The notes beneath the pieces are model-generated. The model had not been told where the DNA came from and did no database searches. It saw nothing but the letters and a program-made list of their open reading frames with translations. 64,000 nt of DNA, taken from an uncultured Rikenella sp. GTDB taxonomy: Bacteria; Bacteroidota; Bacteroidia; Bacteroidales; VadinHA17. The stretch lies in the NCBI GenBank assembly GCA_964488645.1, contig CAZAVK010000006.1, positions 18,548 to 82,547 on the forward strand, written 5' to 3'. Shown piece by piece: positions 2,986 through 60,765 of this stretch; the stretch's first letter is position 1; each line of letters begins with the position of its first letter. Position numbers and translations under genes: made by a program.

Positions 2986-3060
2986 CTTGTGTGGAGCTGG
3001 AACTCTGTTTCGCGCAAGGGGCATTAAAAGCAGCAGCCTGGACGGTAATCTGCACGATAA

Positions 3061-5621: not shown

Positions 5622-5633
5622 TCGAACCAGGCT

Positions 5634-6338
5634 ATGATTACCATTAACAACCTGCGAAAGAGCTACAGCGGCAAAACGGTTCTGGATATCGGCGGACTGA
5701 CCATCGGTGAGGGCGAGATATTCGGGCTGGTGGGGAATAACGGTGCCGGCAAGACAACCCTGCTGCGCCTGATGCTTGACCTGATCAGCGCCGACAGGGG
5801 CACTGTTACCATAGACGGGCATAGTGTAGCCGGTTCGGAGAGGTGGAAGGATTTCACGACCTCATACCTTGATGAGGCCTTTCTGATAGACTATCTGACA
5901 CCGGAAGAGTTTTTCAGCTTCATCGCCCGGGAGTATGATCTGACAAAGGAAGAAGCCGACAGGAGGTTGGAGGAGTTCAGCCGGTTCTTCAATGGTGAGG
6001 TGCTTGGTCAGAGGCGGAAATTCATCAGGGACTTCTCAAGGGGCAACAGGCAGAAGACCGGGATCGCCTCTGCCCTCTTCATCAGGTCACGGGTGCTGAT
6101 CCTCGATGAGCCCTTCAACGGCCTTGACCCCACCTCACAGATCATTCTCAAACAGATGCTTTCAGAGTGCAACCGCGAGAGGGGTACCACCATGGTGATA
6201 TCAAGCCACGACCTGAATCATATAGTGGAGTTATGCACCCGGATCGCAATAATCGAGAAAGGTGTCATCATACGTGATATCACAAACAGCGGCAGTGCCA
6301 TGACTGAGCTGGCAGGGTACTTCTCAGCGGGGCAGTGA
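5634..6338 (+). CDS. ABC transporter ATP-binding protein
   Basis: Walker A GNNGAGKTT, signature FSRGNRQK, Walker B LILDEP, H-loop SSH. Confidence 0.95.
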   Translation: MITINNLRKSYSGKTVLDIGGLTIGEGEIFGLVGNNGAGKTTLLRLMLDLISADRGTVTIDGHSVAGSERWKDFTTSYLDEAFLIDYLTPEEFFSFIAREYDLTKEEADRRLEEFSRFFNGEVLGQRRKFIRDFSRGNRQKTGIASALFIRSRVLILDEPFNGLDPTSQIILKQMLSECNRERGTTMVISSHDLNHIVELCTRIAIIEKGVIIRDITNSGSAMTELAGYFSAGQ

Positions 6339-6478
6339 ATACTCTTGCATACTCTGGCGGCAGTGCCATGACCGAGCTGGCAGGGTATTTCTCAGTAAGG
6401 CAGTGAAGACTCTTGCATACCCTGACGGCAGTGCCATGACCTAGCTGGCAGGGTATTTCTCAGCGGGACAGTGAAGAT
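6289..6478. repeat. 68-bp tandem repeat (about 2.8 diverged copies) duplicating the 3' end and stop codon of the ABC ATPase gene
   Basis: ggcagtgccatgac...ctggcagggta...ctcag...cagtgaa begins at 6291, 6359 and 6427. Confidence 0.95.
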
Positions 6479-6518
6479 TTTTCTAGCCACTGGCGGCAGA
6501 AGCGGCAGCCCCCGCGCC

Positions 6519-8396
6519 CTACTCCTTGTTCTCTATGAATGCATGGTGCAGCACAAATGGAGTGAAGTGTATTACCATGGAAGTACGTGCGGGAATAATC
6601 AGGTCTGATCCTGCAATAACCTCCCTGTTATCGAGGATATTTATTCCGATTTCACCCGGGGCAACTCTTTCGGCAAATCTTTCCCACTCCACCTGCTGGT
6701 CTGATTCTGAGGCATTGAGTATTACCATCACACATTCATGGTCATTATAACGGAAGTATGTATATACACCGTTCTGAGGGACATAGTGCATCAATCTTCC
6801 TGTATGCAGCAGAGGCGTATTTTTGCGAAAATGCAGCAGCCTCCGGGTATGTTCAAACATCTCGCTCTGTTCAGGCGACCGCTCCTCGGCTCTGAACAGG
6901 TTTATCTTATCTCCGGGCCACCCGCCCGGAAAGTCTGGTCTGACCCTGTGATTGGCGTCGGGCTCATCCGGATCATTTCTGAATAACAGTTCTGTGCCAT
7001 AAAATATCTGTGGAATACCACGGGTTGTTGTAATAAGGGTCATTGCCAGTTTTACGCCCTGCAGCTCTTCATCAAGGCTGCTGTAAATGCGCGGAATATC
7101 ATGATTGTCAGCAAAAACCACCTGTGAAAGTTCCGGGTTTTTATACAGAAAATCCTGGGCTATTATGTTATACACACCTCTCATTCTTCCACCCCAGTGA
7201 GTGCCTTTACCCGCAAGTTCAGCGGCAATTGCCTCCTGCAGGGGAAAGTCCATCACCATTGGCAGATGCGTTGTATAGCCGTCATAATTTCCGGCTGACC
7301 CGACCCAGTATGATAGTATTGCCGGTTCAGTCTCCCAGACCTCGCCCACAAGGGAGAAGAAAGGATACTCATTCATGATAGCCCTGGTCCACTCTCCGGC
7401 CTCTTTCCCCATATAGAAATATGTGTCAACCCGCAGGCCATCAAGGTCAGCATATTCAATCCACCAGACGGCCATCTGTGACAGGTATTTCAGCATAAAC
7501 GGGTTGGAGAGGTTGTGATCGGGCATGGTTGAGAAGAGCCAGTTGCTTCCCACAAACCGTGCATCACCTGCTGATGCGTGAGGGTCACTGAGGGAGGAGA
7601 GTGCAAAACGCTCCCAGAAGTTTCCCTCCATCATCATAGGATTGATCCAGTCACTGAAAGGAGGGTTGTCAACCCACCAGTGCCCGATGCCGCAGTGCTG
7701 AGGGGTGATATCCTGTATTACCTTTATACCATGTTCATGGGCCTTTGAGACATATTCCCTGTAGAGCTCATTGGTGCCAAGATGCGGATCAATCCTGTAA
7801 AAATCGGTTGCACCATAATGGTGATAATAGAGATCATCCTGCTGCATGGGGGTTGACCATATAGCTGTTATACCCAGGTCTGAAAGGTATCCCAGATGGT
7901 CAATAATACCCTGTATATCTCCCCCATGCCGGACTGTCATGTCACTACGGTCAACAATCTGGTCATTGCCTCTGACAATATCATTGGAGGGATCTCCATT
8001 GGAAAACCTGTCAGGCATAATCAGGTAGATTACGTCAGATGAGTTGAAGCCTTGCCTGTCAGCGGAGCCGGGACGTCTTGAGAATATTTCATAGGTGACC
8101 CTTACCTCCTTGCGGCTGCGGGTAAAGACCAAGGTATATTTTCCGGGTCTGGTAACCCCGGCATCAATGAAGAGGTAGTCAGGAGAGTCAGCATAATGGA
8201 TTCTTTCAATTGTCATACCCTCTTCAACCACCCTAACCGAACAGTCACGGATATTCTCTCCGCGGACAAGCAGCTGCAGGTCTGTCTTCATGCCGCTCCA
8301 CCAGCAGGGCGGATCTATCTGAATAATCTTCTGTGCCGTTGCTGTGGGTAAAACAGAGAGACCGAAAATCAACAATAACAACTTCAGTCTTATCAT
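6519..8396 (-). CDS. GH13 SusA/cyclomaltodextrinase-neopullulanase-like alpha-glucanase
   Basis: YLIMPDRFSNGDPSND; catalytic DGLRVD, GEVW and DNHD; N-terminal signal peptide. Confidence 0.92.
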   Translation of the reverse strand: MIRLKLLLLIFGLSVLPTATAQKIIQIDPPCWWSGMKTDLQLLVRGENIRDCSVRVVEEGMTIERIHYADSPDYLFIDAGVTRPGKYTLVFTRSRKEVRVTYEIFSRRPGSADRQGFNSSDVIYLIMPDRFSNGDPSNDIVRGNDQIVDRSDMTVRHGGDIQGIIDHLGYLSDLGITAIWSTPMQQDDLYYHHYGATDFYRIDPHLGTNELYREYVSKAHEHGIKVIQDITPQHCGIGHWWVDNPPFSDWINPMMMEGNFWERFALSSLSDPHASAGDARFVGSNWLFSTMPDHNLSNPFMLKYLSQMAVWWIEYADLDGLRVDTYFYMGKEAGEWTRAIMNEYPFFSLVGEVWETEPAILSYWVGSAGNYDGYTTHLPMVMDFPLQEAIAAELAGKGTHWGGRMRGVYNIIAQDFLYKNPELSQVVFADNHDIPRIYSSLDEELQGVKLAMTLITTTRGIPQIFYGTELLFRNDPDEPDANHRVRPDFPGGWPGDKINLFRAEERSPEQSEMFEHTRRLLHFRKNTPLLHTGRLMHYVPQNGVYTYFRYNDHECVMVILNASESDQQVEWERFAERVAPGEIGINILDNREVIAGSDLIIPARTSMVIHFTPFVLHHAFIENKE

Positions 8397-8424
8397 AACT
8401 TATATTTTACGCAGGAGAGATAGG

Positions 8425-9822
8425 TTATTGAACGGAAGTCCCGGGTTTCCACAACTTCTCCATCTCCTCCAGCGGTTTGTTCCTGGTTTCGGGTACCATC
8501 TTCCAGACGAAGAGGGCTGAGAGCAGTGCCATGGCTCCGTAGAATCCGTAGGTCATGCCTCCGCTGAGCTCCATCATGGGCGGGTAGGTTGATGAGATGA
8601 GGAAGTTAGCCATCCACTGTGCCGCCACAGCCACGGCGGTGGCTTTGCTGCGTATCCTGTTCGGGAAGATCTCGGAGATGAGCACCCAGCAGACCGGACC
8701 CCACGACATGGTGAACGAGGCCATGAAGATGATAATGAAGATCAGGGTACCGATGCCTATCGTATTGGCAAAGGCCAGCCCCGCGATGGAGAACATGCCG
8801 ATGCTCATGCCGATGGAGCCGATTACCAGTAGCGGTTTTCTGCCCACACGGTCAACCGTCATGATAGCCACCAGGGTGAATACCACGTTCACCGATCCCA
8901 CAATGATTGTCTGCAGGAATGATGCATCCTTTGTGGCACCCATGCTCTCGAAGATGCGGGGAGCATAGTAGAGTGCCACGTTCACGCCAACGAACTGCTG
9001 GAACAGTGACAGCAGCACCCCGATGATGATAACCCTCTTGCCGAATGAGAATAGCCGTGCCGAGGAGGTCTGCAGTGAACCGGTGATCTCTCCCAGGATT
9101 ATCCTGGCATTTTCGGCGCCGTTTATCTTCGCAAGCACCCTGAATGCCCTGTCGTCCTGGTTTTTCATCATCAGGAATCGCGGCGTCTCGGGGACGAAGA
9201 GCAGCAGTACCCCGAACATCGCTGCCGGGATGGCCTCGGAGGCGAACATGTAACGCCACCCGGTCTCATTGATCCACTCCACGCTCTGCCCGCGCGCGAT
9301 GCTCCAGTTGACGAAGTAGACCGTAAGCATGCCGATGACTATGGCCAGTTGGTTGAGGGAGACCAGCCTGCCCCTGATCCTGGCCGGGGCAACCTCGCTG
9401 ATATACATCGGACAGACGGCAGATGCCAGACCCACCCCGATGCCTCCGAGGATACGGTAGGCGTTGAAGGTGATCAGCAACGCTGCAGAGGGCTCGCCCC
9501 TGACAAAGAAGAGGGTCTCCGGATAGGCCGACCCGAGTGCCGAGAGGAAAAAGAGAACCGATGTTATCAGGAGGGTCTTCTTGCGGCCCAGTGAAGAGGA
9601 TACCAGCCCGGAGAGGGAGCTGCCCATGATACAGCCGATCAGGGCGCTCGAGACGGTGATCCCGTGAATGAAGGCGTTCAGTCCCAGCGGATGGATCAGG
9701 TAAGTCTGGATAGCACGTTCGGCTCCTGAGATAACCGCAGTATCATATCCGAAAAGGAGTCCGCCAAGTGTCGCCACCAGCGTGATACTCAGGACATAAG
9801 CTAAATTAAACTCTCTCTGCAT
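8425..9822 (-). CDS. xylE: MFS sugar porter, XylE-like
   Basis: LGGLLFGYDTAVISG, QQFVGVNVALYYAP, PETPR, SWGPVCWVLISEIFP and VPET motifs. Confidence 0.9.
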   Translation of the reverse strand: MQREFNLAYVLSITLVATLGGLLFGYDTAVISGAERAIQTYLIHPLGLNAFIHGITVSSALIGCIMGSSLSGLVSSSLGRKKTLLITSVLFFLSALGSAYPETLFFVRGEPSAALLITFNAYRILGGIGVGLASAVCPMYISEVAPARIRGRLVSLNQLAIVIGMLTVYFVNWSIARGQSVEWINETGWRYMFASEAIPAAMFGVLLLFVPETPRFLMMKNQDDRAFRVLAKINGAENARIILGEITGSLQTSSARLFSFGKRVIIIGVLLSLFQQFVGVNVALYYAPRIFESMGATKDASFLQTIIVGSVNVVFTLVAIMTVDRVGRKPLLVIGSIGMSIGMFSIAGLAFANTIGIGTLIFIIIFMASFTMSWGPVCWVLISEIFPNRIRSKATAVAVAAQWMANFLISSTYPPMMELSGGMTYGFYGAMALLSALFVWKMVPETRNKPLEEMEKLWKPGTSVQ

Positions 9823-9895
9823 GGGATCGGAATTGGTTGAGAAGTAATTAACAGAATCACTCTGTGCCAGAGGTTAGCAGTTATTGATAGCGGTT

Positions 9896-11848
9896 TCATT
9901 TTCCAAAAGTCACCTGCCTCAGGATGGTGCCTCCCATCGGTACCAGTACCACCTCTTCCGGGGCGCCGGTCTCCGGGTTGATCAGGCTCATCCTGAATCG
10001 CAGTCCCTCCTCCTTAACAGGCTGCCCGTTGCCGTCATACCTGTAGATCACCGGCTCGCCCTTGCTCCTGTACTCATAATCGCGGAATCCCACGGCATAG
10101 ACCACCGCAGGGGTCTCTTCAGCCTCAATGGGGCGGGCCAGCACCAGGGGGCCACAGGCAAAATAGTACTCATCATTGAATTGCTCTGCCCTGGGCACTG
10201 CCTCAAACTCAACCTCGAACTCTTCGGTGCCGCTCCATCTCCTCTCTATCACAATCATGTCGTCAACACGGGAATGATCGGTTGACACCTTTACTCTCCC
10301 TGCCCATCCGGGTATCCTGATCTTGAGCGCGAACTCTGCCGGCTGCTCAACCTCGGTCGTGAACCTTATCCTGGTATCATACGGGTAATCAGTCTCTTCA
10401 CTGATTCTGACCCTGGTCTCCTTCACCGTGGTTGTCACCTCGCAGGGTCCCAGCAGCGATGCTATCAGTCCATCATCTGCTCTCAGCCACATGTTATGCA
10501 CATAGTAGGGTGCTATGCGTCCCGCGTTGGGCACGCAGCAGACGGCAGCCTCCTTGTGTACAGGCGAGTATTTGTAGCGGGTCTGTTTCACCTTGGAGCC
10601 GGGCTCCTCATGCCCGTTTTTATTGCCGGCCATCTGGTATGAGTTGTCGGTCTTCAGGTAGGCGATGGCGCTCTTTTCTGGGTGACGGGCACCCTGTGCG
10701 GCGTTGAAGAAGAGGTGTTCCGCCTTGTCGGCATACTCCATCCTGCCGGTTTTTTGTGTCAGCATGGCGTAGCTGTGCAGCAGCTCCTGCAGTGAGCAGT
10801 ACTCATATCCGGTGGTGGTGGCATCGGCTGCCCTTCCTCCCACCCACTCATCGCCTACCGGTCCGCCTGACGGGGTGGTTGCCCGTTCAATGCGCTGCAG
10901 GTAGATGCCGAGCGCCCTCTCCAGGGCAGGGTTACCGGTGGCGAAGGCGGCGATGGTCAGCGCCCTCAGGTGCTCATAGGTGTGCACACCGTGCCCCTTC
11001 AGCCGGTACTCAGGGTCGATGATGCTGGGGTACTGGATATCGGTCTCGGAGACCTCATGCGAGGAGTACTCCTTGTATAGGAAGAGGGCATAGTCACGGT
11101 ACTCCTGCTTCCCGGTGAGCTGGAAGAGCCGGTCGAGCACATCGGTAAAGGTGAGGCCGTGAGCATTGCCGCCGTTGGAGTTCGGGTAGTAGTAGGGCGT
11201 AGATTCGTTGATCCGGAAGTTGTCCATCACATTCTGCACCCCGCGCTCCACCGCCTCCAGCACTCGGGTGTCGCCGGTGAACTCATAGTATGCAAGAAGC
11301 TCCCTGAAGAGGCTGGCCTTCGCCCATAGCTCGCCGTTCTCGCCGGTGAAGTTGTAGCGCAGGTCGGGAGCATAGATGCCAAGGTAACCATCCTCATCCT
11401 GGGTGGAGAGGATATAGCTGACATGTTCCCTGACCTTTTCAAGGTGCTGCCGGTCATTGACCAGGAATGCCGAACGCACATAGCCGTCGCGCCAGTTCGA
11501 CTGGGTCTCGCTGTTCCACCAGAGGTACTGCACATTCCAGTCGGCCACTTCGGCGACATTGCCTACATCCTTGGATTTCACATCGCGTGTCAGCCGGTCT
11601 CTGCCGTAAATGTCATCATCGATGATCAGGTCGGGCACCAGCCGGTCGAGGTTGCCGGTGAACCCTGCGAGGTTGTCTGAGATCTGCTCTGCCAGCCACC
11701 CCCTGGGGGCTATCTCATTCAGCGGAAGCAGCTCGGTCGCCTCCTGCAGCGGCCTGACCACCGCAAACGGAGAGGCCTCCTTTTTGTGGCAGGCTACCAG
11801 CAGTGTCGCCAGCAGGGCTATCATCAGCAGAATAAGGTATGGTTTCAT
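9896..11848 (-). CDS. GH127-like (beta-L-arabinofuranosidase family) glycoside hydrolase lipoprotein
   Basis: Lipobox LLVAC after MKPYL (start 11848); GYEYC and AVCC Zn/Cys motifs; YPYDTRI C-terminal beta domain. Confidence 0.82.
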   Translation of the reverse strand: MKPYLILLMIALLATLLVACHKKEASPFAVVRPLQEATELLPLNEIAPRGWLAEQISDNLAGFTGNLDRLVPDLIIDDDIYGRDRLTRDVKSKDVGNVAEVADWNVQYLWWNSETQSNWRDGYVRSAFLVNDRQHLEKVREHVSYILSTQDEDGYLGIYAPDLRYNFTGENGELWAKASLFRELLAYYEFTGDTRVLEAVERGVQNVMDNFRINESTPYYYPNSNGGNAHGLTFTDVLDRLFQLTGKQEYRDYALFLYKEYSSHEVSETDIQYPSIIDPEYRLKGHGVHTYEHLRALTIAAFATGNPALERALGIYLQRIERATTPSGGPVGDEWVGGRAADATTTGYEYCSLQELLHSYAMLTQKTGRMEYADKAEHLFFNAAQGARHPEKSAIAYLKTDNSYQMAGNKNGHEEPGSKVKQTRYKYSPVHKEAAVCCVPNAGRIAPYYVHNMWLRADDGLIASLLGPCEVTTTVKETRVRISEETDYPYDTRIRFTTEVEQPAEFALKIRIPGWAGRVKVSTDHSRVDDMIVIERRWSGTEEFEVEFEAVPRAEQFNDEYYFACGPLVLARPIEAEETPAVVYAVGFRDYEYRSKGEPVIYRYDGNGQPVKEEGLRFRMSLINPETGAPEEVVLVPMGGTILRQVTFGK

Positions 11849-11913
11849 TCTGAAGGTTTTTACTTTCACTCTTATCAACTCTTTGAGGGATTTTGTCCTG
11901 TCTGTTGTTGTGG

Positions 11914-12939
11914 TCAGGCCCTGGTATCCCGGGCATGCTCCTCCAGTGCTTCGCTGAAGGCTGTCATATTCTCCGGCGGCGTAAACCTGGGCACCTCACA
12001 TCCGGCACTGATACATGCCTTACCCTGCGATTCGGCGATGGACCTGCGCACTGCCGCCTTCACCTCCTCAACCGTACCGTTGAGCATCACCGCCACCGGA
12101 TCGGCATTGCCGTTCACCACCGACACACCGTCGAGAATCTCCACCGCACGCTTCATATCAACCATCCAGTCAATATCGACTATATCGCACCTGAGGCTCT
12201 TAATATCTTCGAGAATACGGTTTATGTCGCCGCAGATATGGAGCTTCACCACCGCCCCGGCCTGCTGCACCGCCTCGACTATCCTCTTTTCGTAGGGCAG
12301 CACCTTCTCAGCATAAAGGCTACGACTGACCAGCGATGCGGCGGCGTCACCGATGCCGATTATATCTGCGCCGGCCTCAATCTGTGCCTTTGCGCACAGG
12401 ATGGCCTGCTGAGTACACTTCTCCATCAGCTCGGCGAACAGCTCCTCACTCTCATCATCAATGATGTCGAGCAGGCTGTTGTTGATGCCCCGCAGGTCAC
12501 TCGCCTCAGCCAGCGGACCCTCAACCCATCCGATAATCGGGTAATGATTGCCCATCTCCTTCCTGAAGAGTTCAATGGCACGTATCCGGTCGAGCATACG
12601 CACCGATTCCCACGGGTCGAAGAGCTTCAACCTGGTGACATCTTCCAGCTCGGGCAGAAGAACCCTCTTAGGGTACGGAAGGTCATCCTCGCGGTAGATC
12701 AGCTCGGTACCGAAATCGGCGGTCTCCCTGACCGGGTCAGACATGGTGGAGAGGGCGTCAATACCGAAGTCAACCGTGGTTTTGATATTGCCCTCAACCA
12801 GCACCCGGTAGTCGGTACAGAACTCACCATAGGGCCGGTTGATGTGCCGGGCGGCAAAGAACATCACAATATTCAGGTTGGGAAGCCTGTCAACCGGTTT
12901 CCCCTCAAGCATCGCGTAGAGGCGTTCGTATGGAGTCAT
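11914..12939 (-). CDS. MtaA/CmuA-like (UROD-fold) corrinoid methyltransferase
   Basis: Zn-ligand motifs KLHICG and SAGCEVP; GPLAEA and GNADP; adjacent to a corrinoid protein cluster. Confidence 0.88.
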   Translation of the reverse strand: MTPYERLYAMLEGKPVDRLPNLNIVMFFAARHINRPYGEFCTDYRVLVEGNIKTTVDFGIDALSTMSDPVRETADFGTELIYREDDLPYPKRVLLPELEDVTRLKLFDPWESVRMLDRIRAIELFRKEMGNHYPIIGWVEGPLAEASDLRGINNSLLDIIDDESEELFAELMEKCTQQAILCAKAQIEAGADIIGIGDAAASLVSRSLYAEKVLPYEKRIVEAVQQAGAVVKLHICGDINRILEDIKSLRCDIVDIDWMVDMKRAVEILDGVSVVNGNADPVAVMLNGTVEEVKAAVRRSIAESQGKACISAGCEVPRFTPPENMTAFSEALEEHARDTRA

Positions 12940-13128
12940 ATCAATAGCTTGGTTTTTATTTTTATGTCTGTCTGGTTAATTATGATTCCTCATGTCTCAA
13001 ACTGCTTTGCCGGCTACAATCTGATTCTTTCGGCGCCGGCCGGTTATGCTTTCCTTCATCTGCTATTGCCTGGTTCTGTATCTCTAAGTCAGCCGTGTCA
13101 CTTTCTTGTTGCTTTACTCTTTTTCAAC

Positions 13129-13237
13129 TTACGGAGGTTGCTGCCTGTTGCCACCTTTGCTGTATCAGGAGGCTCTTGCTTTTCATCACCTTTGCTGTGT
13201 CAGCAGGCTCCTGCCTGTCGCCACCTTTCCTGTATCA
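13129..13237. repeat. 35-bp tandem repeat x3; the first copy shares 15 bp with the 3' end of the upstream gene
   Basis: Units g(g/c)agg...cacctttgctgtatca at 13133, 13168 and 13203; ttacggaggttgctg occurs at both 13129 and 13324 (inside the CDS). Confidence 0.85.
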
Positions 13238-13292
13238 CCTCTTTACCGGTTCCCGTATCAGTTTTGTCATCCCTTCTCTTTCTGCATATGTA

Positions 13293-14006
13293 TCATGGGT
13301 GACCGGTCAGCTTATGCCTCCTGTTACGGAGGTTGCTGGCGCAATCCTTCATGGTGCAGATGTCACATCCGTAAGGACGTCTTTTCACATCACTGCCCAC
13401 CGCAATTATCCCGCTGACCGACTTAACCGGTATCATCAGTGAAGAGGCGGTCAGGGTGATGCCGGTGATTCCCTCCGGCAGCAGTGCAAAGAGCTTCTTC
13501 TGCTCCTGCAGGCTCCAGTCGCAATAGCCCGGGCTGTAGTTATTGCTGATTTTCAATCCTGCCTTTGCAGCTTCGCGGCTGAGATGTTCATTCAGCAACT
13601 GGGCGGCGCCCTCTGCGATGACTGACCCCAGTGCATCGGCTATGAACTCGAGCAGTATGTTATCCTCTCTCTTCAGCTCCTGCAGCCGGTTATGGAACTC
13701 CATTCCGGCGGTGGCGGTGAAGAGGGCTATCTGTGTCGCCTCCTTCATGGCATGGGTAATAATGGCACCGGTATTGAATATGGTTCCGCCCGCCTCTATC
13801 CGCCTCTTGTCAACCGCCCTCCCGGGGAAAAGCGCGTAGCCGTAACGGGGTCTGCAGTGGCTGCGCAGCATCCCGGTCACCTCATCTATCATGGCAATGA
13901 TCTCCTCAGGCGGGGTGTGGTCGCCGTACCCCATCAGCCGGTAGAGCTCGCCGGTATCAATCGGGAGGTTATCGAGGGTGGTATCATAATAGCTGACCTG
14001 CTCCAT
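13293..14006 (-). CDS. Stand-alone B12-dependent methionine synthase activation (reactivation)-domain protein
   Basis: ALFTATAG, YSPGYCDW and SLMIPVKSVSGII motifs; C-terminal CxxCxxxxC (CDICTMKDC). Confidence 0.85.
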   Translation of the reverse strand: MEQVSYYDTTLDNLPIDTGELYRLMGYGDHTPPEEIIAMIDEVTGMLRSHCRPRYGYALFPGRAVDKRRIEAGGTIFNTGAIITHAMKEATQIALFTATAGMEFHNRLQELKREDNILLEFIADALGSVIAEGAAQLLNEHLSREAAKAGLKISNNYSPGYCDWSLQEQKKLFALLPEGITGITLTASSLMIPVKSVSGIIAVGSDVKRRPYGCDICTMKDCASNLRNRRHKLTGHP

Positions 14007-14019
14007 GCTTCGAGATCAT

Positions 14020-15030
14020 TCACCTGCCGTTCCAGGCAGAGAGCGCCTCATAAAAGGCTTCGATATTTTCATGCGGCACATGCGGCGGTACGTCGCAGCC
14101 GGTGGAGAGTACGAAATTAGGAAAGGGAGCTGTCTGTTCAAGCAGCTCGGTGGTCGCCTTATGAACCTCGGCGGACGTGCCCGACCTGAAAAGGGAGACC
14201 GGATCGAGGTTGCCCATCACCAGTGCTGTGGGAGGGATGGCCTGCAGGGCATCAGTCATATTCATCACATTGCCGAAATGATAGCCCCACGCGCCTGTCT
14301 CACTCATTGCCCGGGTGCAGTGGCCGGTGTTGCCGCAGTTGTGCAGTATGACCATGAATGAGTCATCCTGCAGCGCATCAACTATCTCTTTTATGTATGC
14401 CGATGAGTAGGTGCTGCAGAGGTTGTTTGAGAGGAGGCCGGCTGCCGGTTCGGCAATAATCACCCCCTGTGCTCCCTGGCGTCTGATCTCCCTGCCGTAG
14501 CCGGTCAGCCATGCGGTACACTTCTCCAGCAGCAGCTCAGCTGTATCGGGCTCATCGATGCATGCCATCATAAACTCAGACATGTCATAGAGCCTGCCGG
14601 CCAGGGTGAAGGGTCCGGTCATCCCTCCGAATACCGGCTTGCCGGGGATATTTTCCGCGGCAAGGCGGGCTGCCAGCAGATATTGGGGTACCCGGCCTGC
14701 CGACGTATCAGGTATCCCGAGCCCGGCAACATCCTCCTCGCTGCTCAGCAGCCGTCCGGTCACCGACGGTATCTCATCTTCCGGGAAGTGTACCCTGGCG
14801 CCGAATGCCTCCGCCTCAACCGTCAGGTCCATGATGGTGGTGCATGCTGCAGCCGGATAACGGTCATTGAGAGCCTTTATCGCCTCGTAGTGCACCCTGC
14901 CGTCACTCACCGCCTCCCTGACCGTTCTGCCCAGCAGCTCTATGCCCGGATGGGTCATGACAGGAACCGCAATGCGGTCACTCCGGTTAATGACACCGGC
15001 AATCCATTCTCTCATATTCATTTCAGTCAT
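14020..15030 (-). CDS. MtaA/CmuA-like (UROD-fold) corrinoid methyltransferase
   Basis: MDLTVEAEAFG, GPFTLA and GNLDP; Zn ligands ILHNCG and STGCDVP. Confidence 0.88.
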   Translation of the reverse strand: MTEMNMREWIAGVINRSDRIAVPVMTHPGIELLGRTVREAVSDGRVHYEAIKALNDRYPAAACTTIMDLTVEAEAFGARVHFPEDEIPSVTGRLLSSEEDVAGLGIPDTSAGRVPQYLLAARLAAENIPGKPVFGGMTGPFTLAGRLYDMSEFMMACIDEPDTAELLLEKCTAWLTGYGREIRRQGAQGVIIAEPAAGLLSNNLCSTYSSAYIKEIVDALQDDSFMVILHNCGNTGHCTRAMSETGAWGYHFGNVMNMTDALQAIPPTALVMGNLDPVSLFRSGTSAEVHKATTELLEQTAPFPNFVLSTGCDVPPHVPHENIEAFYEALSAWNGR

Positions 15031-15048
15031 CGCTTGCGGAAGTCGGGG

Positions 15049-15693
15049 TTATGAGATGCCCATCAGCTCCCTGGCCTTCCTCACTGCCGAGTTGGCGCTG
15101 TCACTGTACCCGTCTGCCCCTATCTCCGTTGCAAACCGTTCACTCACCGGGGCGCCTCCGATCATCACCTTCACCCGGTCACGCAGATGAGCCTCCTTCA
15201 GGGCATCGATCACACTCTTCATGTTGGGCATGGTTGTGGTTAGCAGGGCGCTCAGTCCGACGATATCGGCATTATGCTCCCTCACTGCCTCAAGGAATTT
15301 ATCGCTGCCGGCATCTATGCCCAGGTCAATCACCCTGAAGCCGCATCCCTCAAGCATTGATGCGACAAGGTTCTTGCCGATGTCATGCAGGTCGCCCTGC
15401 ACCGTGCCGATCACCACCGTACCCAGCGTGCTGATCTGTTCTCCCCCCTGCAGTAGCGGCTGCAGCAGGGCCAGGGAGGCCTTCATGGCACGGCTCGAGA
15501 GAAGCAGCTCGGGAACGAACGCCTCCTGCTTCTCAAAACGGCGCCCGATCTCCTCCATCGCCCTGATCATATGTTCTTCGATCAGCACCTGCGGAGAGAC
15601 ATTGTTGTCAAGTGCCTGACGGGTTACGGCAACCGCATCCTTGTGCCGGCCATTGAGAACAGCCTCATAAAGCAGATTCAAGTCAACATCCAT
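15049..15693 (-). CDS. Corrinoid (cobalamin-binding) methyl-carrier protein, MtbC/MttC-like
   Basis: Helical cap (FVPELL) followed by GDLHDIGKNLV (DxHxxG), SALLT and GGAP. Confidence 0.95.
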   Translation of the reverse strand: MDVDLNLLYEAVLNGRHKDAVAVTRQALDNNVSPQVLIEEHMIRAMEEIGRRFEKQEAFVPELLLSSRAMKASLALLQPLLQGGEQISTLGTVVIGTVQGDLHDIGKNLVASMLEGCGFRVIDLGIDAGSDKFLEAVREHNADIVGLSALLTTTMPNMKSVIDALKEAHLRDRVKVMIGGAPVSERFATEIGADGYSDSANSAVRKARELMGIS

Positions 15694-15837
15694 AACTGTT
15701 TCTATTGGTTTCTTACTGTTGTCTCCGGTTTAATATTTCTGAAGATACCTTTTCCGGAATCAGGATGCAAGATAGGCAGGCAGCCATTATTCTGCGCATG
15801 GAAGAGCAATATTTAACAGCACTTTCTCCTTTTTTGC

Positions 15838-18156
15838 TCATTCCTCCAGGAAAAATGTAGCAGATTTCAGGTCACGGCTGTTTGGGCCTGCCATCACCCT
15901 GAACTCCCCGGGTTCACAGAGGTATTCGAGTTCATAGTTGTAAAACTTCAGCATCTCAGGTGTTATCCGGAAGGTGACGGTTGCCGTCTCTCCCGGGCTG
16001 AGCGTTATCTTTTCAAATCCCTTCAGCTCCTTCACCGGCCGGGTTACCGATGCCACCACATCACGGATATAGAGCTGGACCACCTCACTGCCCTCTCTCT
16101 GTCCGGTGTTGGTTACATCTATGGCGGCCTCAATCTCTCCTCCCGCGGTCATAAGAGTATCACTGAGCACCAGGTCGCCATAGCTGAATGAGGTGTAGCT
16201 GAGCCCGTAGCCGAACGGATAAAGCGGTTCATTGACCACATCGAGGTATCCGCTGCGGAATTTCTGGAACCACTGATCCATTGGTTTGCTCACGCTCTTC
16301 AGGCTGTAGTATATGGGTATCTGCCCGACGTTCCGCGGCCATGTGGCGGTCAGCCTGCCGCCGGGGCTCACATCGCCGAATAGGACGTCAGGGATGGCAT
16401 AGGCCGCCTCCGTTCCGGGGAACCAGACATTGAGTATTGCCGGAACGTTTTCATCTTCCCAGGTTATTGTCAGTGGCCTGCCGGTAAAGAGCACCAGCAC
16501 CACCGGCTTGCCCGTGGCTACCAGCGCCTTCAGCAGCTCTCTCTGCGGTGCCGGGAGGCCTATCTCCGAGCGGCTGCTTGACTCACCGCTCATCTCCGAT
16601 GACTCGCCGAGGGTTGCGACCACCACATCGGCGCTCCGTGCCACCCGAAGGGCCTCCTCAAGCAGCTGTGCATTGGTGCGGGTATCCTTCTCAAAATCCT
16701 TGGTCAGCGAGAGCCAGAACTCATGCTCCATATTCTCATAGGGCTGACAGCCGCGGGCATAGACTACCCTGGCCTTCCCGCCGAGGTGCTCCCTCATCCC
16801 GTCGAGGAGCTTCGGTGCCTTGTTGATATCTGCAGGCCATGCCCACGAGCCTATCACGTTGGCGCTGTTGTTGCCGTGAGGTCCTATCAACGCAATTGTT
16901 CCCCTCTTCGCCAGTGGGAGAAGGCTGTTCTCATTCTTCAGCAGCACAAATGTCTCCGGGGCGATGGCGCGCGCCACACTGCGGTGCTCCGGGGTGTAGA
17001 TGTCGCGGGCCGGGCGGGTGGTGTCACAGTATTTGTACGGGTCTGTGAAAAGCCCAAGCCTGTATTTTGCCTCGAGTATGCGCCGGCATGCCTTTTCTAT
17101 CTGGTCAAGTGAGATATCTTCGGCCTCCATTGCGGCGGCCAGGTGACGGTGATAGGCATAGCTCTCCATATCCAGGTCGGTGCCTGCCCTGAGCGCCATC
17201 ACCGCACCGTCATAGGTGGTACCCATACCGAACCGTACTATATCATTGATCGAGGCATAGTCTGTCACAACGAATCCGCCGAAACCCCACTGGTCACGCA
17301 GCAGATCCTGAAGCAGCCACCTGTTGGCTGTGGCAGGCAGACCGTCAACCTCATTGAATGAGCTCATTACACTTCCGACGCCTGCCTCCACGGCAGCCCT
17401 GTATGGCAACAGGTACTCATTCAGCATCCGCTGCCGGCTCATATCGACAACGCTGTAGTCGCGGCCGGCCTCACTGGCACCGTAGAGTGCAAAATGCTTC
17501 ACGCATGCCATGATGTTACTGTTGCCGGCATAGGCGGGGTCGCCCTGGTATCCCTTCACCAGTGCCCTCGCCACGGCAGCCCCGAGGAAGGGGTCTTCGC
17601 CGGCCCCCTCGACAATACGCCCCCACCGCGGGTCACGGGCTATGTCAACCATAGGACTGTAAACCCAGTTAAGGCCGTCGGCGCTCGCCTCCACGGCAGC
17701 GATACGGGCAGCCTGCTCAATGATCTCCATATTCCACGAGGCAGCCATCCCGAGCGGAACGGGGAAGATGGTCTCATATCCATGCAGGAAATCCATTCCG
17801 AACAGCAGGGGTATCTTCATGCGGCTCTGCTCAACGGCAACCTGCTGCAGGCGGTGTATCTTCACGGCACCTTTGGCATTTATCAGTGCACCCACATGAC
17901 CTGCCCTGATCTCCTGAACCATCCTGCTCTGGTCGCTGTGCAGATCCTCACCCGAGACAGCATCGGTGCCCGAGATCAGATGCAGCTGTCCGATCTTCTC
18001 CTCCAGGGTCATCCTCTTCAGGAGGGAGGAGATGAATGCATCCATCTCCGCATCTGTGGCATCACGCCTTTCATGTGTGCATGAAACCATGATGGAGAGC
18101 AGAGTGACCATCACATACAGGGCGGGTTTGCAGCCGGAATTTCTTGTCATCAGCAT
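15838..18156 (-). CDS. bglX: GH3 beta-glucosidase BglX-like lipoprotein
   Basis: DPRWGRIVEGAGEDP, CVKHFA and nucleophile in VTDY; FN3-like C-terminus. Start is probably 18156 or 18150, ahead of lipobox IMVSC. Confidence 0.93.
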   Translation of the reverse strand: MLMTRNSGCKPALYVMVTLLSIMVSCTHERRDATDAEMDAFISSLLKRMTLEEKIGQLHLISGTDAVSGEDLHSDQSRMVQEIRAGHVGALINAKGAVKIHRLQQVAVEQSRMKIPLLFGMDFLHGYETIFPVPLGMAASWNMEIIEQAARIAAVEASADGLNWVYSPMVDIARDPRWGRIVEGAGEDPFLGAAVARALVKGYQGDPAYAGNSNIMACVKHFALYGASEAGRDYSVVDMSRQRMLNEYLLPYRAAVEAGVGSVMSSFNEVDGLPATANRWLLQDLLRDQWGFGGFVVTDYASINDIVRFGMGTTYDGAVMALRAGTDLDMESYAYHRHLAAAMEAEDISLDQIEKACRRILEAKYRLGLFTDPYKYCDTTRPARDIYTPEHRSVARAIAPETFVLLKNENSLLPLAKRGTIALIGPHGNNSANVIGSWAWPADINKAPKLLDGMREHLGGKARVVYARGCQPYENMEHEFWLSLTKDFEKDTRTNAQLLEEALRVARSADVVVATLGESSEMSGESSSRSEIGLPAPQRELLKALVATGKPVVLVLFTGRPLTITWEDENVPAILNVWFPGTEAAYAIPDVLFGDVSPGGRLTATWPRNVGQIPIYYSLKSVSKPMDQWFQKFRSGYLDVVNEPLYPFGYGLSYTSFSYGDLVLSDTLMTAGGEIEAAIDVTNTGQREGSEVVQLYIRDVVASVTRPVKELKGFEKITLSPGETATVTFRITPEMLKFYNYELEYLCEPGEFRVMAGPNSRDLKSATFFLEE

Positions 18157-18227
18157 TGATTTATGGTTAGTCTGTAGAGTAAGAGCGGAAAGCTGCCCGT
18201 TGCGGGAGGCTCTTATACGCAAATCTA

Positions 18228-18680
18228 CTATGTCAGCCGCCATTCTGCAAGCAGCAGGCCTCTCTTTATGTGGTTATTTGTATTCAGCATAATCCTGTCG
18301 GCCGTCTCGAGGATGTTTTTCAGAACAGGCTTGGGGTTGCCCATCATGATACCGTTGTTCTGCGATGAGCTGGCATACTCGATATACCATTTATAGTTCC
18401 GTATCTGCCACAGGTCAAACATCTCTTCCGGTTCAAAGAGGTCGAAGAATGTTACATCAGTCTCAATATTCTGCATCCCGATGGCCACCGCAAAGAGTTC
18501 GCGCATGATGGTGACCGGGTTCACCCGCCTGAGGATGTAGATATCATCGGAGAAGAGGCTCCTGACCAGCCGGTCTGGCCTGACAGGAGATTGATGGCCA
18601 GGAAACCCAGCAAAAGCTGTAACCAAATAACTCTCATATGATTCTCTTTTGAATTGATCCTTCGGAAAGAGCGACACCAC
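18228..18680 (-). pseudogene. Internal fragment of a histidine acid phosphatase (Minpp/phytase-like)
   Basis: PDRLVRSLF...MRELF...MQN...DLF..EE.FDLWQ..NY.WY...LKNILETAD resembles the middle of Bacteroidota histidine-type phosphatases. The RHGxRxP and HD motifs are absent and there is no signal peptide. Confidence 0.6.
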
Positions 18681-52809: not shown

Positions 52810-52937
52810 ATAACATGACGAGCGCAAATGCCTGAAAAATCAGCACTTAGAGATCACGAGATGGCATCTCCGAACATTATTTTAACTATTTTTGGATGAG
52901 TTTCAGCAAAAGGACAATAATATCAATTTCAACTACA

Positions 52938-54482: not shown

Positions 54483-54483
54483 G

Positions 54484-59286: not shown

Positions 59287-59296
59287 TATGACCGTT

Positions 59297-60667: not shown

Positions 60668-60694
60668 CTTTCTGAGATATGTCTTGAAAGGTTG

Positions 60695-60732
60695 CAGGGC
60701 CGGCGGAGGAAATCTCTGCCGGCCCTGTTTTT
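60695..60732 (+). terminator. Intrinsic terminator between convergent genes
   Basis: cagggccggcggag-gaaat-ctctgccggccctg followed by ttttt. Confidence 0.85.
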
Positions 60733-60765
60733 CCCTGAGGGACAGCAGGGCCGGCCGCTGTACCC

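Follow-up and report, generated by a model that had tools for sequence, protein, structure and literature searches.

Why should a vitamin B12-dependent methyl-transfer module be encoded among the sugar-degradation genes of an anaerobic, gut-type member of the Bacteroidales? The question is raised by the window analyzed here, a stretch of 64,000 nucleotides from an uncultured Rikenella sp., in which eight co-oriented genes, all on the minus strand, span positions 6519 to 18243. A preliminary description had assigned these genes to families and proposed that the module demethylates O-methyl sugars. The coordinates and all eight family assignments were confirmed by domain searches, except that the end position given earlier, 18156, is an internal ATG and the GH3 frame extends to 18243. 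Our reading, to which we give a probability of roughly 0.62, is that the eight genes form a catabolic operon directed at a glycan or glycoside containing an O-methylated sugar, which is demethylated without O2. It is supported by every in silico test available, but these are comparative only and nothing biochemical stands behind it. If true, an anaerobe would demethylate sugars without oxygen, through vitamin B12 methyl transfer within a sugar-degradation operon. In the literature searched, the only carbohydrate demethylation found was that by an O2-dependent P450, and no B12-dependent sugar demethylase module of this kind has been described there. From GH3 to GH13, the locus is composed of the following features.

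15838..18243, minus strand: GH3 beta-glucosidase, BglX-like (PF00933, PF01915, PF14310)
15049..15693, minus strand: corrinoid (B12-binding) protein (Corr), cap domain and Rossmann domain (PF02607 and PF02310)
14020..15030, minus strand: MTA, UROD-fold methyltransferase (PF01208, E = 2e-57)
13293..14006, minus strand: Act, stand-alone MetH-type activation (reactivation) domain protein (PF02965, E = 1e-10)
12940..13292, no strand: intergenic insertion of 353 bp with a 35-nt tandem repeat inside
11914..12939, minus strand: MTB, second UROD-fold methyltransferase (PF01208, E = 8e-63)
9896..11878, minus strand: GH127-like (DUF1680) glycosidase, here called GH127w (PF07944, 48.9 bits; PF20736)
8425..9822, minus strand: XylE-like sugar:H+ symporter of the MFS sugar-porter family (PF00083, E = 2e-122)
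6519..8396, minus strand: GH13 cyclomaltodextrinase/neopullulanase-like protein with signal peptide (PF09087, PF00128, PF10438)

The GH3 protein and the porter exceed the cutoffs of the NCBIfam BglX (860 bits, cutoff 666) and XylE (696 bits, cutoff 608) equivalogs, respectively. GH127w represents a distant GH127 subfamily, whose CC(V/P)PN motif aligns to the GH127 structure 4qjy, and the GH13 protein is 41% identical to a housekeeping paralogue at 57448-59286. On inspection of the N-termini, signal peptides are present in all three hydrolases and absent from the methyltransferases, Corr, and Act. GH3 translation likely starts at the internal ATG (18156), which gives a lipoprotein-like N-terminus, and the enzyme is probably an exported lipoprotein. 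For GH127w, the ATG at 11848, which yields a lipoprotein signal, is likely to be the start rather than the called TTG at 11878. The genes flanking the cluster, ABC/DUF5687 at one end and Nudix/ThiF at the opposite end, are unrelated to it.

The corrinoid protein carries the His-on motif GDLHDIG in its Rossmann domain; among solved structures, it is most closely related to 1y80, MttC (7xcn), the corrinoid protein 4jgi of D. hafniense, and the B12 domain of MetH. MTA is structurally nearest to MtaA (4ay7) and belongs to one tight group of 74 members (62% mean identity) that is common to all module types; the H-C-C triad at the zinc positions of MtaA is found in all 74. MTB has the same MtaA-like H-x-C...C triad and scores higher against MtaA than MTA does, and both proteins miss the NCBIfam MtaA/CmuA cutoff of 235 (163 and 140 bits). 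The best solved relative of Act is 1j6r, a stand-alone T. maritima protein deposited as methionine synthase. Act ends in a CxxCxxxxC motif, which is retained together with a PGY motif in 54 of 55 homologues.

A comparison set of about 170 related loci was examined. The gene set of the window, in rearranged order, recurs in at least eight other loci with 50-89% amino acid identity, which is well beyond chance. In this locus type (type E, SusCDE-GH13-GH3-GH127w), identities reach 64-85% for GH3, 65-85% for the corrinoid protein, and 50-73% for GH13. MTB is the best-conserved protein in L001 (89%) and L088 (74%) and is tied best in L002 (73%), while GH3 is conserved slightly better in L083 and L087. 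MTB homologues with at least 65% identity are located in SusCDE-GH13-GH3 loci; orphan homologues with 41-58% identity occur in other phyla.

It had been stated beforehand that a lack of conserved linkage to sugar genes would refute the proposal. This is not what was observed, as MTA homologues occur in recurrent glycan-gene neighborhoods in 80 Bacteroidales loci. Within five genes of MTA, Corr was found in 55 and Act in 53 of the 73 scorable loci, and an annotated GH or sugar transporter in at least 55. Closeness to a GH is by itself only weak support because Bacteroidales genomes are rich in CAZymes. The Corr-MTA-Act core is embedded in at least five different glycan-gene architectures across the Bacteroidales, each with its own partner methyltransferase. 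Besides type E, these include GH31-c10-SSF-Corr-MTA-Act-GH141, often with GH78, GH127, or GH51 nearby (type A); GFO oxidoreductases, a 3-keto-disaccharide hydrolase, and GH97 (type B); GH115, GH43, and GH127 (type C); and GH38 and GH92 (type D). Among the partners, at least 13 UROD-type groups are distinguished, with 20-30% identity to MTA in each case; c10, a remote UROD-fold protein, is added to these. Every group goes with a GH context of its own, the partner type changing with the GHs, and single genomes can contain several modules with different partners and glycan loci (L022 and L040; L007, L010, and L027). We consider it likely that the cluster in the window belongs to a modular family of the Bacteroidales consisting of Corr-MTA-Act and at least 14 partner methyltransferase groups.

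Several loci depart from this scheme. L083 and L087 retain MTB and encode an MtaB-family protein in place of MTA (Corr-MtaB-Act-MTB), and in L090, MTB is accompanied by a partner methyltransferase of group 1 while MTA is missing. In type G loci, MTA stands alongside full-length MtaB, CobW, and RACo, where, by analogy, it takes the place of MT2 in a methanol-type system. Some MTA-Act pairs lie in housekeeping contexts without a nearby GH (e.g., adjoining SHMT), and in Prevotella relatives a PF02574 homocysteine S-methyltransferase domain is fused to the corrinoid protein.

The strongest new evidence, again comparative, comes from GH127w, whose orthologues share 53-76% identity (53-54% for those of aerobes). 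In all four aerobic cases examined (Flavobacterium, Chitinophagaceae, and two other Bacteroidota contigs), a PhyH-type Fe/2-oxoglutarate dioxygenase precedes GH127w and a porter that is 45-46% identical to that of the window. The enzymes nearest to the PhyH protein, SnoK, SnoN, and EvdO2, are sugar-modifying. In anaerobes, GH127w adjoins MTB-type genes instead (the window, L001-L003, L083, L088, and Symbiothrix L170), and no PhyH was found in any anaerobic locus of the comparison set. In Symbiothrix it is an MTB-like gene, not MTA, that lies beside GH127w at the position of the aerobes' PhyH. Demethylation is the reaction that the PhyH and MTB enzyme classes have in common. The contexts compared are few (4 aerobic and 7 anaerobic) and were picked for long contigs.

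In the proposed pathway, the exported GH3, GH127-like, and GH13 enzymes would free a methylated monosaccharide, which the XylE-like symporter would take up. Cytoplasmic MTB would act as the substrate-specific MT1, converting the sugar methyl ether and Co(I)-Corr to CH3-Co(III) and the free sugar; this role is assigned because of the co-variation with glycan genes and the dioxygenase displacement. MTA, the core enzyme common to all module types, with an invariant MtaA-type His-Cys-Cys site, is proposed as MT2 and would pass the methyl group from the corrinoid to an unidentified cellular acceptor, possibly tetrahydrofolate, a thiol (homocysteine, for instance), or water (yielding methanol). Judging from its family membership, Act would restore adventitiously oxidized Co(II) by reductive methylation with S-adenosylmethionine, replacing the ATP-dependent activase of acetogens and methanogens. 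The identity of the sugar, the methyl acceptor, and the MT1/MT2 assignment are inference only, without biochemical or genetic evidence. The methyl sink remains unexplained because the cluster contains neither a pterin-type MTII nor an Hcy domain. It also counts against the sugar reading that ether cleavage by characterized UROD-family MT1 enzymes is known solely for aryl methyl ethers, whose leaving groups are better.

The module also departs from the acetogen/methanogen paradigm invoked in the preliminary description. Like the aryl methyl ether O-demethylases of acetogens, Desulfitobacterium, and Methermicoccus (MtvABC, OdmABCD/Vdm, Dhaf_4610-12, MtoABCD, and the related CdmBCA), the module would combine an MT1 of the UroD superfamily, a corrinoid protein, an MT2, and a reactivation factor for O2-free cleavage of a methyl C-O bond by a Co(I) supernucleophile. 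It differs in having two UROD-fold methyltransferases and no pterin-binding/MtrH-type MTII, in its MetH-type, SAM-dependent activator (theirs is an ATP-dependent 2Fe-2S/ASKHA activase), in its setting within glycan-degradation operons of non-acetogenic fermenters, and in the proposed leaving group, a sugar alkoxide rather than a phenolate. With Methanosarcina MtaABC it shares methyltransferases closest to MtaA that keep the His-x-Cys...Cys zinc ligands, sister loci with MtaB-family proteins and CobW, and a proposed substrate methyl on a non-aromatic (alkyl-type) oxygen, as in methanol. Unlike that system, the window lacks MtaB and has a different type of activator, and Bacteroidales are not known to have coenzyme M. 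MetH, including the split Thermotoga system with stand-alone TM0269 (PDB 1j6r), likewise has a His-on B12 domain and a SAM-type activation domain acting in trans, but the window has UROD-fold methyltransferases instead of Hcy and pterin-binding domains, and the Act family has an additional conserved C-terminal CxxCx3-5C motif.

The P450 6-O-methyl-D-galactose demethylase of marine Bacteroidota (Formosa, Zobellia), correctly cited beforehand as O2-dependent, is comparable as an auxiliary methyl-sugar demethylation inside a polysaccharide utilization locus. It is oxidative and releases formaldehyde, whereas the proposed module would transfer the methyl group non-oxidatively to cobalt, which is workable in a strict anaerobe. 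The similar B. thetaiotaomicron cluster previously mentioned near BT_0339-0343 is real. BT_0338-BT_0343 is a type A locus (GH141, GH31, c10-Corr fusion, SSF, Act, and MTA), which differs from the window in its partner (c10, not MTB), hydrolases, and transporter. BT_0338 is annotated as GH141, BT_0339 as alpha-xylosidase, and BT_0340/0342/0343 as 'Mta' corrinoid proteins; they have been named only by annotation, as known B12-binding 'Mta' proteins, and were not among the proteins recovered by a B12 probe (PMC8941943).

Among the rival readings, a reversal of roles survives best and leaves the overall function unchanged: MTA, or the MtaB replacing it, would be the MT1 acting on the sugar ether and MTB an MtaA-like MT2. 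This is possible and renders our assignment insecure. L083 and L087 have an arrangement that parallels the canonical MtaC-MtaB plus MtaA system, MTB outscores MTA against MtaA, L090 does without MTA, and MTB-like genes are widespread, as a generic step would predict. On the other hand, MTA fills the MT2 slot beside true MtaB in type G loci, the GH context co-varies with the partner type and not with MTA, and the PhyH position is taken by an MTB-like gene.

It is unlikely that what the hydrolases free is a methoxylated aromatic aglycone serving as the methyl donor (from coniferin- or syringin-type glucosides or methoxy-flavonoid glycosides, or ferulate), which would make the module a conventional aryl methyl ether O-demethylase. 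In favor, the characterized ether-cleaving UROD-superfamily MT1s (MtvB, OdmB, VdmB, and MtoB) all use aryl methyl ethers, and the GH51, GH43, and GH115 contexts resemble those for feruloylated arabinoxylan. Phenolic glucosides are commonly deglycosylated by GH3 beta-glucosidases. Against it, the neighboring transporters are sugar porters (XylE equivalog, SSF, and MFS sugar families); the GH38/GH92, GH115, and Sus-like alpha-glucan contexts have no aromatic link; both methyltransferases are nearer to MtaA than to the sole solved member of the O-demethylase/CdmB clade; and the aerobic counterpart PhyH is nearest to sugar-modifying dioxygenases, not to aromatic demethylases of the VanAB, LigM, or GcoA type.

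Also unlikely is a split MetH-like system for C1 metabolism or methionine synthesis that is merely co-located with sugar genes and has no glycan substrate. This view is in line with Act being a MetH activation domain, with the resemblance of the corrinoid protein to the B12 domain of MetH, with the Prevotella fusion, and with the SHMT-adjoining MTA-Act pairs. However, GH synteny outlasts rearrangement across genera, single genomes have several modules with a different partner per glycan locus, the PhyH displacement is linked to both GH127w and the porter, and a complete MetH (BT_0180) is already present in B. thetaiotaomicron. Methanol, which methyl-esterified or methyl-glycosidic carbohydrates, for example, could release, is a very improbable substrate despite the MtaB-family proteins in L083, L087, and type G loci, as the window has no MtaB, no carbohydrate esterase was seen among the annotated neighbors of the locus types (many neighbors being unannotated), a single substrate needs no GH-tracking diversity of partners, and PhyH is not a methanol enzyme.

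Finally, the intergenic gaps from GH3 to GH13 measure 144, 18, 13, 353, 35, 73, and 28 bp, in agreement with the earlier figures (144 bp, a repeat-filled 353 bp, and mostly 13-73 bp otherwise, here 28-73 and 13-18 bp). The 353-bp gap between Act and MTB contains 2.8 copies of a 35-nt unit (13141-13237); it has no Rfam match, and a search for a minus-strand terminator-like site found none. The insertion is missing in the closest relative, L001, where the gap is 22 bp, and is also present in the independent assembly L081.

Many glycans of plants, algae, and microbes contain sugars with methyl ethers, which block normal catabolism. Examples include 4-O-methyl-glucuronate in xylan as well as 2-O-methyl-xylose and 2-O-methyl-fucose in rhamnogalacturonan-II. 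For carbohydrate demethylation, the literature searched yielded only the P450 route (PMC6292453, PMC8360166), which needs O2. Because the sole carbohydrate demethylase found is oxygen dependent, it is an open question how strict anaerobes of guts and sediments handle methyl ethers. No paper on corrinoid- or 2-oxoglutarate (2OG)-dependent sugar demethylation was found in the literature searched, which comprised open-access papers and bioRxiv only, so that this absence is no proof. Our main reading, which is inferred, is that the following eight genes demethylate O-methyl sugars in a B12-dependent manner without O2.

Genes of the cluster in order of transcription (window positions, strand, assignment)
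15838-18243, minus: GH3, BglX equivalog (NCBIfam, 860 bits vs. a cutoff of 666)
15049-15693, minus: Corr, corrinoid protein, 214 aa (PF02607 cap and PF02310 Rossmann domain, motif GDLHDIG)
14020-15030, minus: MTA, URO-D-fold methyltransferase, 336 aa (Pfam)
13293-14006, minus: Act, 237 aa (sole family match PF02965, B12-dependent methionine synthase activation domain)
11914-12939, minus: MTB, URO-D-fold methyltransferase, 341 aa (Pfam)
9896-11878, minus: GH127w, distant GH127/DUF1680 protein, 650-660 aa (Pfam)
8425-9822, minus: sugar porter, XylE equivalog (NCBIfam, 696 bits vs. 608)
6519-8396, minus: GH13, cyclomaltodextrinase type (Pfam/NCBIfam annotation)

The gene content claimed in the preliminary description held in every particular when checked by ORF calls, Pfam, and NCBIfam. 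From GH3 to GH13, the genes are separated by 144, 18, 13, 353, 35, 73, and 28 bp. Inspection of the N-termini revealed signal or lipoprotein-like sequences on all three hydrolases and none on MTA, MTB, Corr, or Act. The surrounding genes are unrelated (DUF5687/ABC, an SBF transporter, GH20, Nudix, ThiF, and a LytTR two-component pair), and farther off the window encodes HydF, a class I fumarase, a GH92, and a separate maltose/starch locus. An adjacent SusC/SusD pair was not found in or beside 6519-18243, none of the annotated ORFs in the window encodes a cytochrome P450, and no Rfam family, hence no cobalamin riboswitch, was detected anywhere in it. About 500 bp lie between GH3 and the divergent Nudix gene, and the cluster has no adjacent regulator. 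A 150-aa minus-strand ORF without family match (18228-18680) extends over the 5' end of the GH3 ORF; it is unlikely to be a real gene.

The transfer of methyl groups through Co(I), from a substrate to the corrinoid protein by a first methyltransferase (MT1) and from there to an acceptor by a second (MT2), is well known. Corr carries the DxHxxG-type B12-binding Rossmann domain and the cap domain, with 1y80, MttC, and MtmC as near relatives. In the same operon, Act is flanked by two PF01208 proteins, of which one likely loads and the other unloads Corr, with both the individual roles and the methyl transfer itself being inferred. Membership of the URO-D superfamily is clear (PF01208, 213 bits for MTB and 195 bits for MTA), and neither protein meets the cutoff of 235.4 bits for TIGR01463 (MtaA/CmuA; MTB 163.1, MTA 140.3). 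H230, C232, and C312 of MTA (alignment A1) and H234, C236, and C314 of MTB (alignment A3) are invariant and align to the zinc ligands of MtaA (4ay7). Act matches PF02965 with 41.7 bits (cutoff 25) over model positions 118-250, keeps the PGY motif, and has the stand-alone Thermotoga protein 1j6r as its best PDB match. A C-terminal CxxCx3-5C motif followed by a basic tail (window 13293-13400) is present in 54 of 55 stand-alone Act homologues and might constitute a metal or Fe-S site. CobW-type metallochaperone GTPases accompany some related modules (locus L050, 11333-12907; locus L042, 9114-10028), in one case fused to an activation-domain fragment; this association would fit a delivery of zinc to the methyltransferases, which is no more than a possibility.

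A pterin-binding MTII (AcsE/MetH/MtvA/MtqA-like) is absent from the eight cluster genes and from the other annotated ORFs of the window, and the cluster itself contains neither the homocysteine S-methyltransferase domain PF02574 nor a pterin-binding domain. An ATP-dependent activase (RACE/RamA/RACo type) is likewise absent from the window, the PF02965 protein being there instead; RACo was found in the type G loci described below and in some distant loci.

To assess the conservation of the cluster, 185,579 species genomes were scanned with a sequence pattern; the first 600 matches yielded at least 534 confirmed MTA relatives. The best 80 of these (55-76% identity, nearly all Bacteroidales) were compared by calling and clustering ORFs and annotating recurrent clusters, leaving singleton neighbours unannotated. 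The closest locus, from an uncultured Rikenella MAG (L001), reproduces all eight genes in unchanged order, with 73-89% amino-acid identity. Of the 73 loci that could be scored, 55 have Corr no more than five genes from MTA, and 53 have Act that close. An annotated GH or sugar transporter lies within the same distance in at least 55 of 73; this is a minimum, since singleton neighbours went unannotated, and it comes without a background rate. Proximity to GHs alone is weak evidence as these genomes are CAZyme-rich, and the weight rests on specific architectures that recur across genera and through rearrangements.

Neighbourhood architectures around MTA homologues (UROD MT, UROD-fold methyltransferase; c10, type A partner protein)
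Type A: GH31-c10-SSF symporter-Corr-MTA-Act-GH141; ~25 loci in Bacteroides, Phocaeicola, Prevotella, Dysgonomonas, and Paludibacter
Type B: 416-aa UROD MT, then Corr-Act-MTA
Type C: 339-aa UROD MT, then Corr-Act-MTA-GH127-MFS-GH115-GH2/GH43, with GH51; B. intestinalis and relatives
Type D: GH38-MFS, 355-aa UROD MT, Corr-MTA, GH92; Parabacteroides
Type E (type of the window): SusC-SusD-SusE-GH13-(GH97)-Corr-MTA-Act-MTB-GH3-GH127w-MFS; L002, L003, L082, L088, L089
Type F (exception): PyrB-PyrI-flavin reductase-SHMT-MTA-Act; without Corr, without GH
Type G (exception): Corr-MTA-MtaB-CobW-RACo; resembles a methanol system

Type A is often accompanied by GH78, rhamnose mutarotase, GH127, GH51, and pentose-catabolism genes; type B comes with GFO/IDH/MocA oxidoreductases, a 3-keto-disaccharide hydrolase, a xylose-isomerase-like TIM barrel, GH97, and SusC. 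Orthologous loci with SusC and SusD upstream are L002, L003, L083, and L087, while L082 and L089 have at least SusD-SusE before their contigs end. Some genomes possess several modules, each in a different glycan locus (L022 and L040; L007, L010, and L027). The preliminary description had held that a lack of conserved linkage to sugar genes in homologues would refute the demethylation hypothesis; the linkage recurs in specific architectures, and the hypothesis is not refuted on that account. Its pointer to a similar cluster in B. thetaiotaomicron was also correct: BT_0339 is annotated as an alpha-xylosidase (PMC10434189), BT_0338 is a GH141 (PMC8264420), and the set matches type A of B. xylanisolvens XB1A (L055). 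The open-access papers and preprints searched contained no study on the function of the Bacteroides "Mta" genes.

Both exceptions merit description. Type F-like MTA-Act pairs occur in L013, L018, and L023 (~6500-12000) directly after pyrB-pyrI, a flavin reductase gene, and glyA (SHMT), where they might have a housekeeping role or serve as a shared unloading and reactivation unit. Type G occurs in lake-sediment Bacteroidia (L042, ~6000-10028, with RACo downstream; L036; L056) with a full-length MtaB (530 bits); to our knowledge, the phylum of these carriers is not known for methylotrophy.

Across these loci, MTA forms one tight group (74 proteins, mean identity 62%). Its partner methyltransferases make up at least 13 groups with only 20-30% identity to MTA, and every group goes with a single GH context. 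In the MT1/MT2 paradigm, a variable, substrate-specific enzyme is combined with a shared unloading enzyme (PMC8630106, PMC13222342), and a constant MTA with a varying partner fits this arrangement. His-Cys-Cys occupies the MtaA zinc positions in all 74 MTA proteins and also in MTB and two other partner groups, the remaining groups having His-Cys-His, His-Asp-His, or His-Asp-Gly. The type A partner c10 (354 aa) has no Pfam match. That it might be a new fold was considered and rejected, as hhalign against the partner methyltransferases gave a probability of 96.9%, identifying it as a remote UROD-fold relative; hhalign of c10 against the MTA family showed no similarity. It occurs free, fused to Corr, and, in Prevotella, in a c10-homocysteine S-methyltransferase (PF02574)-corrinoid arrangement, Corr-fused PF02574 being limited to Prevotella relatives. 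The 973-aa Prevotella fusion (L037, 12386-15307; also L047, L051, and L059) comprises c10, PF02574, the corrinoid cap, and B12 domains and adjoins MTA and Act; it resembles a MetH whose pterin domain was swapped for a different methyl-donor domain.

A second line of evidence comes from the genes next to GH127w. This protein matches PF07944 with 48.9 bits over part of the model only, with CCVPN, at the place of the Cys-Cys zinc/nucleophile motif, aligning to CCPPN of 4qjy, and scores 53 bits against the NCBIfam aceric-acid hydrolase model (cutoff 950). It most likely belongs to a distant DUF1680 subfamily to which no activity is assigned. Homologues with 52-57% identity are widespread in Bacteroidota, including aerobes. 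In four cases from non-anaerobes, a PhyH-family Fe(II)/2OG dioxygenase gene directly precedes GH127w.

PhyH-GH127w loci
L168, Flavobacterium selenitireducens, 4992-11519: full PhyH operon, PhyH gene at 4992-5804
L169, Bacteroidetes MAG, 6315-11468: PhyH operon without porter gene
L171, Chitinophagaceae MAG, 1093-3966: only PhyH then GH127w seen
L172, 4-Mb JGI contig, 4926-11552: full PhyH operon

The full operon (L168, L172) encodes an AraC regulator, PhyH, a TIM-barrel-like 279-aa protein, a sugar porter (45-46% identical to the XylE-like protein of the window), GH127w, and GH13. The PhyH protein is nearest to SnoK, SnoN, and EvdO2, which are Fe/2OG enzymes acting on sugar moieties. In Candidatus Symbiothrix dinenymphae (L170), an anaerobic termite symbiont, a UROD methyltransferase precedes GH127w and has MTB as its best match (48% identity). 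An MTB-type gene adjoins GH127w or lies at most two genes away in the window, L001-L003, L083, and L088, the one in L003 being a 40%-identical variant. Neither PhyH nor the 279-aa protein was present in any of the anaerobic loci examined. TIM-barrel proteins beside MTB (L086) or in type B were tried as homologues of the 279-aa protein and rejected, there being no BLAST-level homology.

A 2OG dioxygenase demethylates oxidatively with release of formaldehyde, whereas a corrinoid methyltransferase transfers the methyl group to Co(I). Since both enzyme classes share little chemistry except demethylation, the exchange of PhyH and MTB is read as a non-orthologous aerobic/anaerobic displacement. Read in this way, it supports both a demethylation step on an imported sugar and MTB as the enzyme touching the substrate. 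The sample is small (4 PhyH and 7 MTB-type cases, picked for long contigs). The aerobic operon itself may represent an O2-dependent, non-P450 sugar demethylase pathway, apparently undescribed.

Taken together, the following mechanism is proposed. The localization signals and protein families suggest that GH3, GH127w, and GH13, once exported, trim an oligosaccharide or glycoside and that the porter imports the methylated monosaccharide. MTB would then transfer the O-methyl group to Co(I)-Corr, as inferred from the partner variation and the PhyH displacement, and MTA would pass the methyl group of CH3-Co(III) on to an acceptor. MTA is assigned the unloading role because it is constant, has an invariant MtaA-type site, and stands together with a genuine MtaB and RACo in the type G loci. 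Co(II) formed by oxidation of the cofactor would be reactivated by Act through SAM-dependent reductive methylation, as predicted from its family. A reactivator that methylates needs an unloading enzyme before Co(I) returns, which fits the tight spacing of Corr, MTA, and Act (18 and 13 bp).

The methyl acceptor remains undecided from sequence. Bacterial tetrahydrofolate MTIIs are pterin-binding proteins, none of which is encoded in the cluster. The His-Cys-Cys site might point to a thiol, and homocysteine is inferred from the Prevotella fusion to be the likely acceptor in modules related to that of the window; these fusion modules keep MTA despite their homocysteine domain. The adjacency of SHMT in type F offers a tentative hint at folate.

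Several alternatives should be considered. The one that survives best is a reversal of roles, in which MTB is MT2 and MTA (or an MtaB replacing it) is MT1. In the Sus-type loci L083 (6913-8286) and L087 (6895-8271), otherwise like the window, an MtaB-family protein (49-50% identical to type G MtaB) occupies the MTA slot between Corr and Act with MTB retained, an arrangement that permits the reversal; this protein may release the methyl group as methanol or may be an MT1. It is also permitted by the higher similarity of MTB than of MTA to MtaA, by L090, which has a group-1 methyltransferase, Corr, and MTB without MTA, and by the many orphan MTB-like genes in other phyla. The distant MTB-like genes (41-58% identity; Armatimonadota, Clostridia, and environmental contigs) are mostly orphans without informative neighbours, and the zinc triad, identical in MTA and MTB, cannot separate MT1 from MT2. 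The reversal remains possible but is less likely than the assignment proposed above.

It is unlikely that methoxylated aromatic aglycones are the methyl donors. They are known substrates of UROD-type ether-cleaving MT1s, but the transporters are sugar porters, the GH contexts argue against it, the methyltransferases resemble MtaA more than they do the CdmB/O-demethylase clade, and the PhyH counterpart is of the sugar type. Similarly improbable is a housekeeping split methionine synthase that is merely co-located with sugar genes; both the architecture-specific partners and the PhyH displacement are at odds with it. A methanol system can be all but dismissed, as the window lacks MtaB and the diversity of partners contradicts it.

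Within the preferred reading of sugar demethylation, a methylated glucose or xylose is a mere guess for the window, made because of the Sus-like alpha-glucan genes, the BglX-like GH3, and the XylE-like porter. Gene context alone would tentatively suggest 4-O-methyl-glucuronate for GH115 loci, 2-O-methyl-xylose or 2-O-methyl-fucose for GH31/GH141/GH78 loci, and methyl-mannose for GH38/GH92 loci. The gene set of the type B loci L004, L005, and L007 recalls rhizopine and inositol catabolism, and methylated cyclitols such as pinitol are for this reason possible there.

Several aspects are apparently new: sugar methyl ethers as the proposed substrate class, the pairing of two UROD-fold methyltransferases in the absence of a pterin-type MTII, the replacement of the ATP-dependent activase by a MetH-type activation domain, the modular integration into polysaccharide-utilization loci of fermentative Bacteroidales, and the parallel PhyH-type system inferred for aerobes. 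If the sugar-demethylase reading is true, B12-dependent enzymology would gain a new substrate class, the uncharacterized but widely conserved Bacteroides set BT_0338-0343 and its relatives would be explained, and cobamide cross-feeding would be linked to fibre utilization. The question would then be directly testable since several carriers are genetically tractable and the aerobic PhyH counterpart can easily be assayed for its substrate.

A bolder reading, which could as easily prove wrong as right, is that Bacteroidales hold a modular family of B12-dependent anaerobic sugar O-demethylases with an aerobic PhyH counterpart. In this reading, a constant engine of Corr, MTA, and a MetH-type activation domain would serve 14 or more methyltransferase classes, each specific to its own substrate and built into a glycan locus of its own, with 4-O-methyl-glucuronate, 2-O-methyl-xylose/-fucose, methyl-mannose, methyl-glucose, and perhaps methyl-inositols as candidate sugars, and in aerobic Bacteroidota the equivalent task would fall to an unrecognized sugar demethylase of the PhyH Fe/2OG type. 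If so, the supply of B12 would determine which dietary glycans gut Bacteroidales fully use, and methyl groups would flow from fibre into methionine, methanol, or methanethiol.

The 353-bp gap between Act and MTB (12940-13292) contains a 35-nt repeat in 2.8 copies, of which no further copy was found elsewhere in the window. The insertion is missing in L001, the nearest relative, where the gap is 22 bp, and is also found in an independent assembly (L081). A scan of the gap for sigma-70 promoters and terminators gave nothing informative on the coding strand, and the consensus is also unsuited to Bacteroidota. Fifteen nucleotides from the 3' end of the Act gene (13324-13338) are duplicated at 13129-13143.

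The window has a G+C content of 55% and encodes an [FeFe]-hydrogenase maturase, from which an anaerobic member of the Rikenellaceae is inferred as the most likely source. This maturase, HydF (38019-39242), is preceded by a 399-aa ORF without Pfam match (region 36823-39242) and fits a strictly anaerobic lifestyle. The separate maltose/starch locus (52896-63573) encodes an MFS transporter, a GH65 maltose phosphorylase, a GH13 cyclomaltodextrinase, a 459-aa ORF, and a 935-aa GH13. Its cyclomaltodextrinase (57448-59286) is 41% identical to the GH13 of the cluster, which is therefore regarded as a specialized paralogue.
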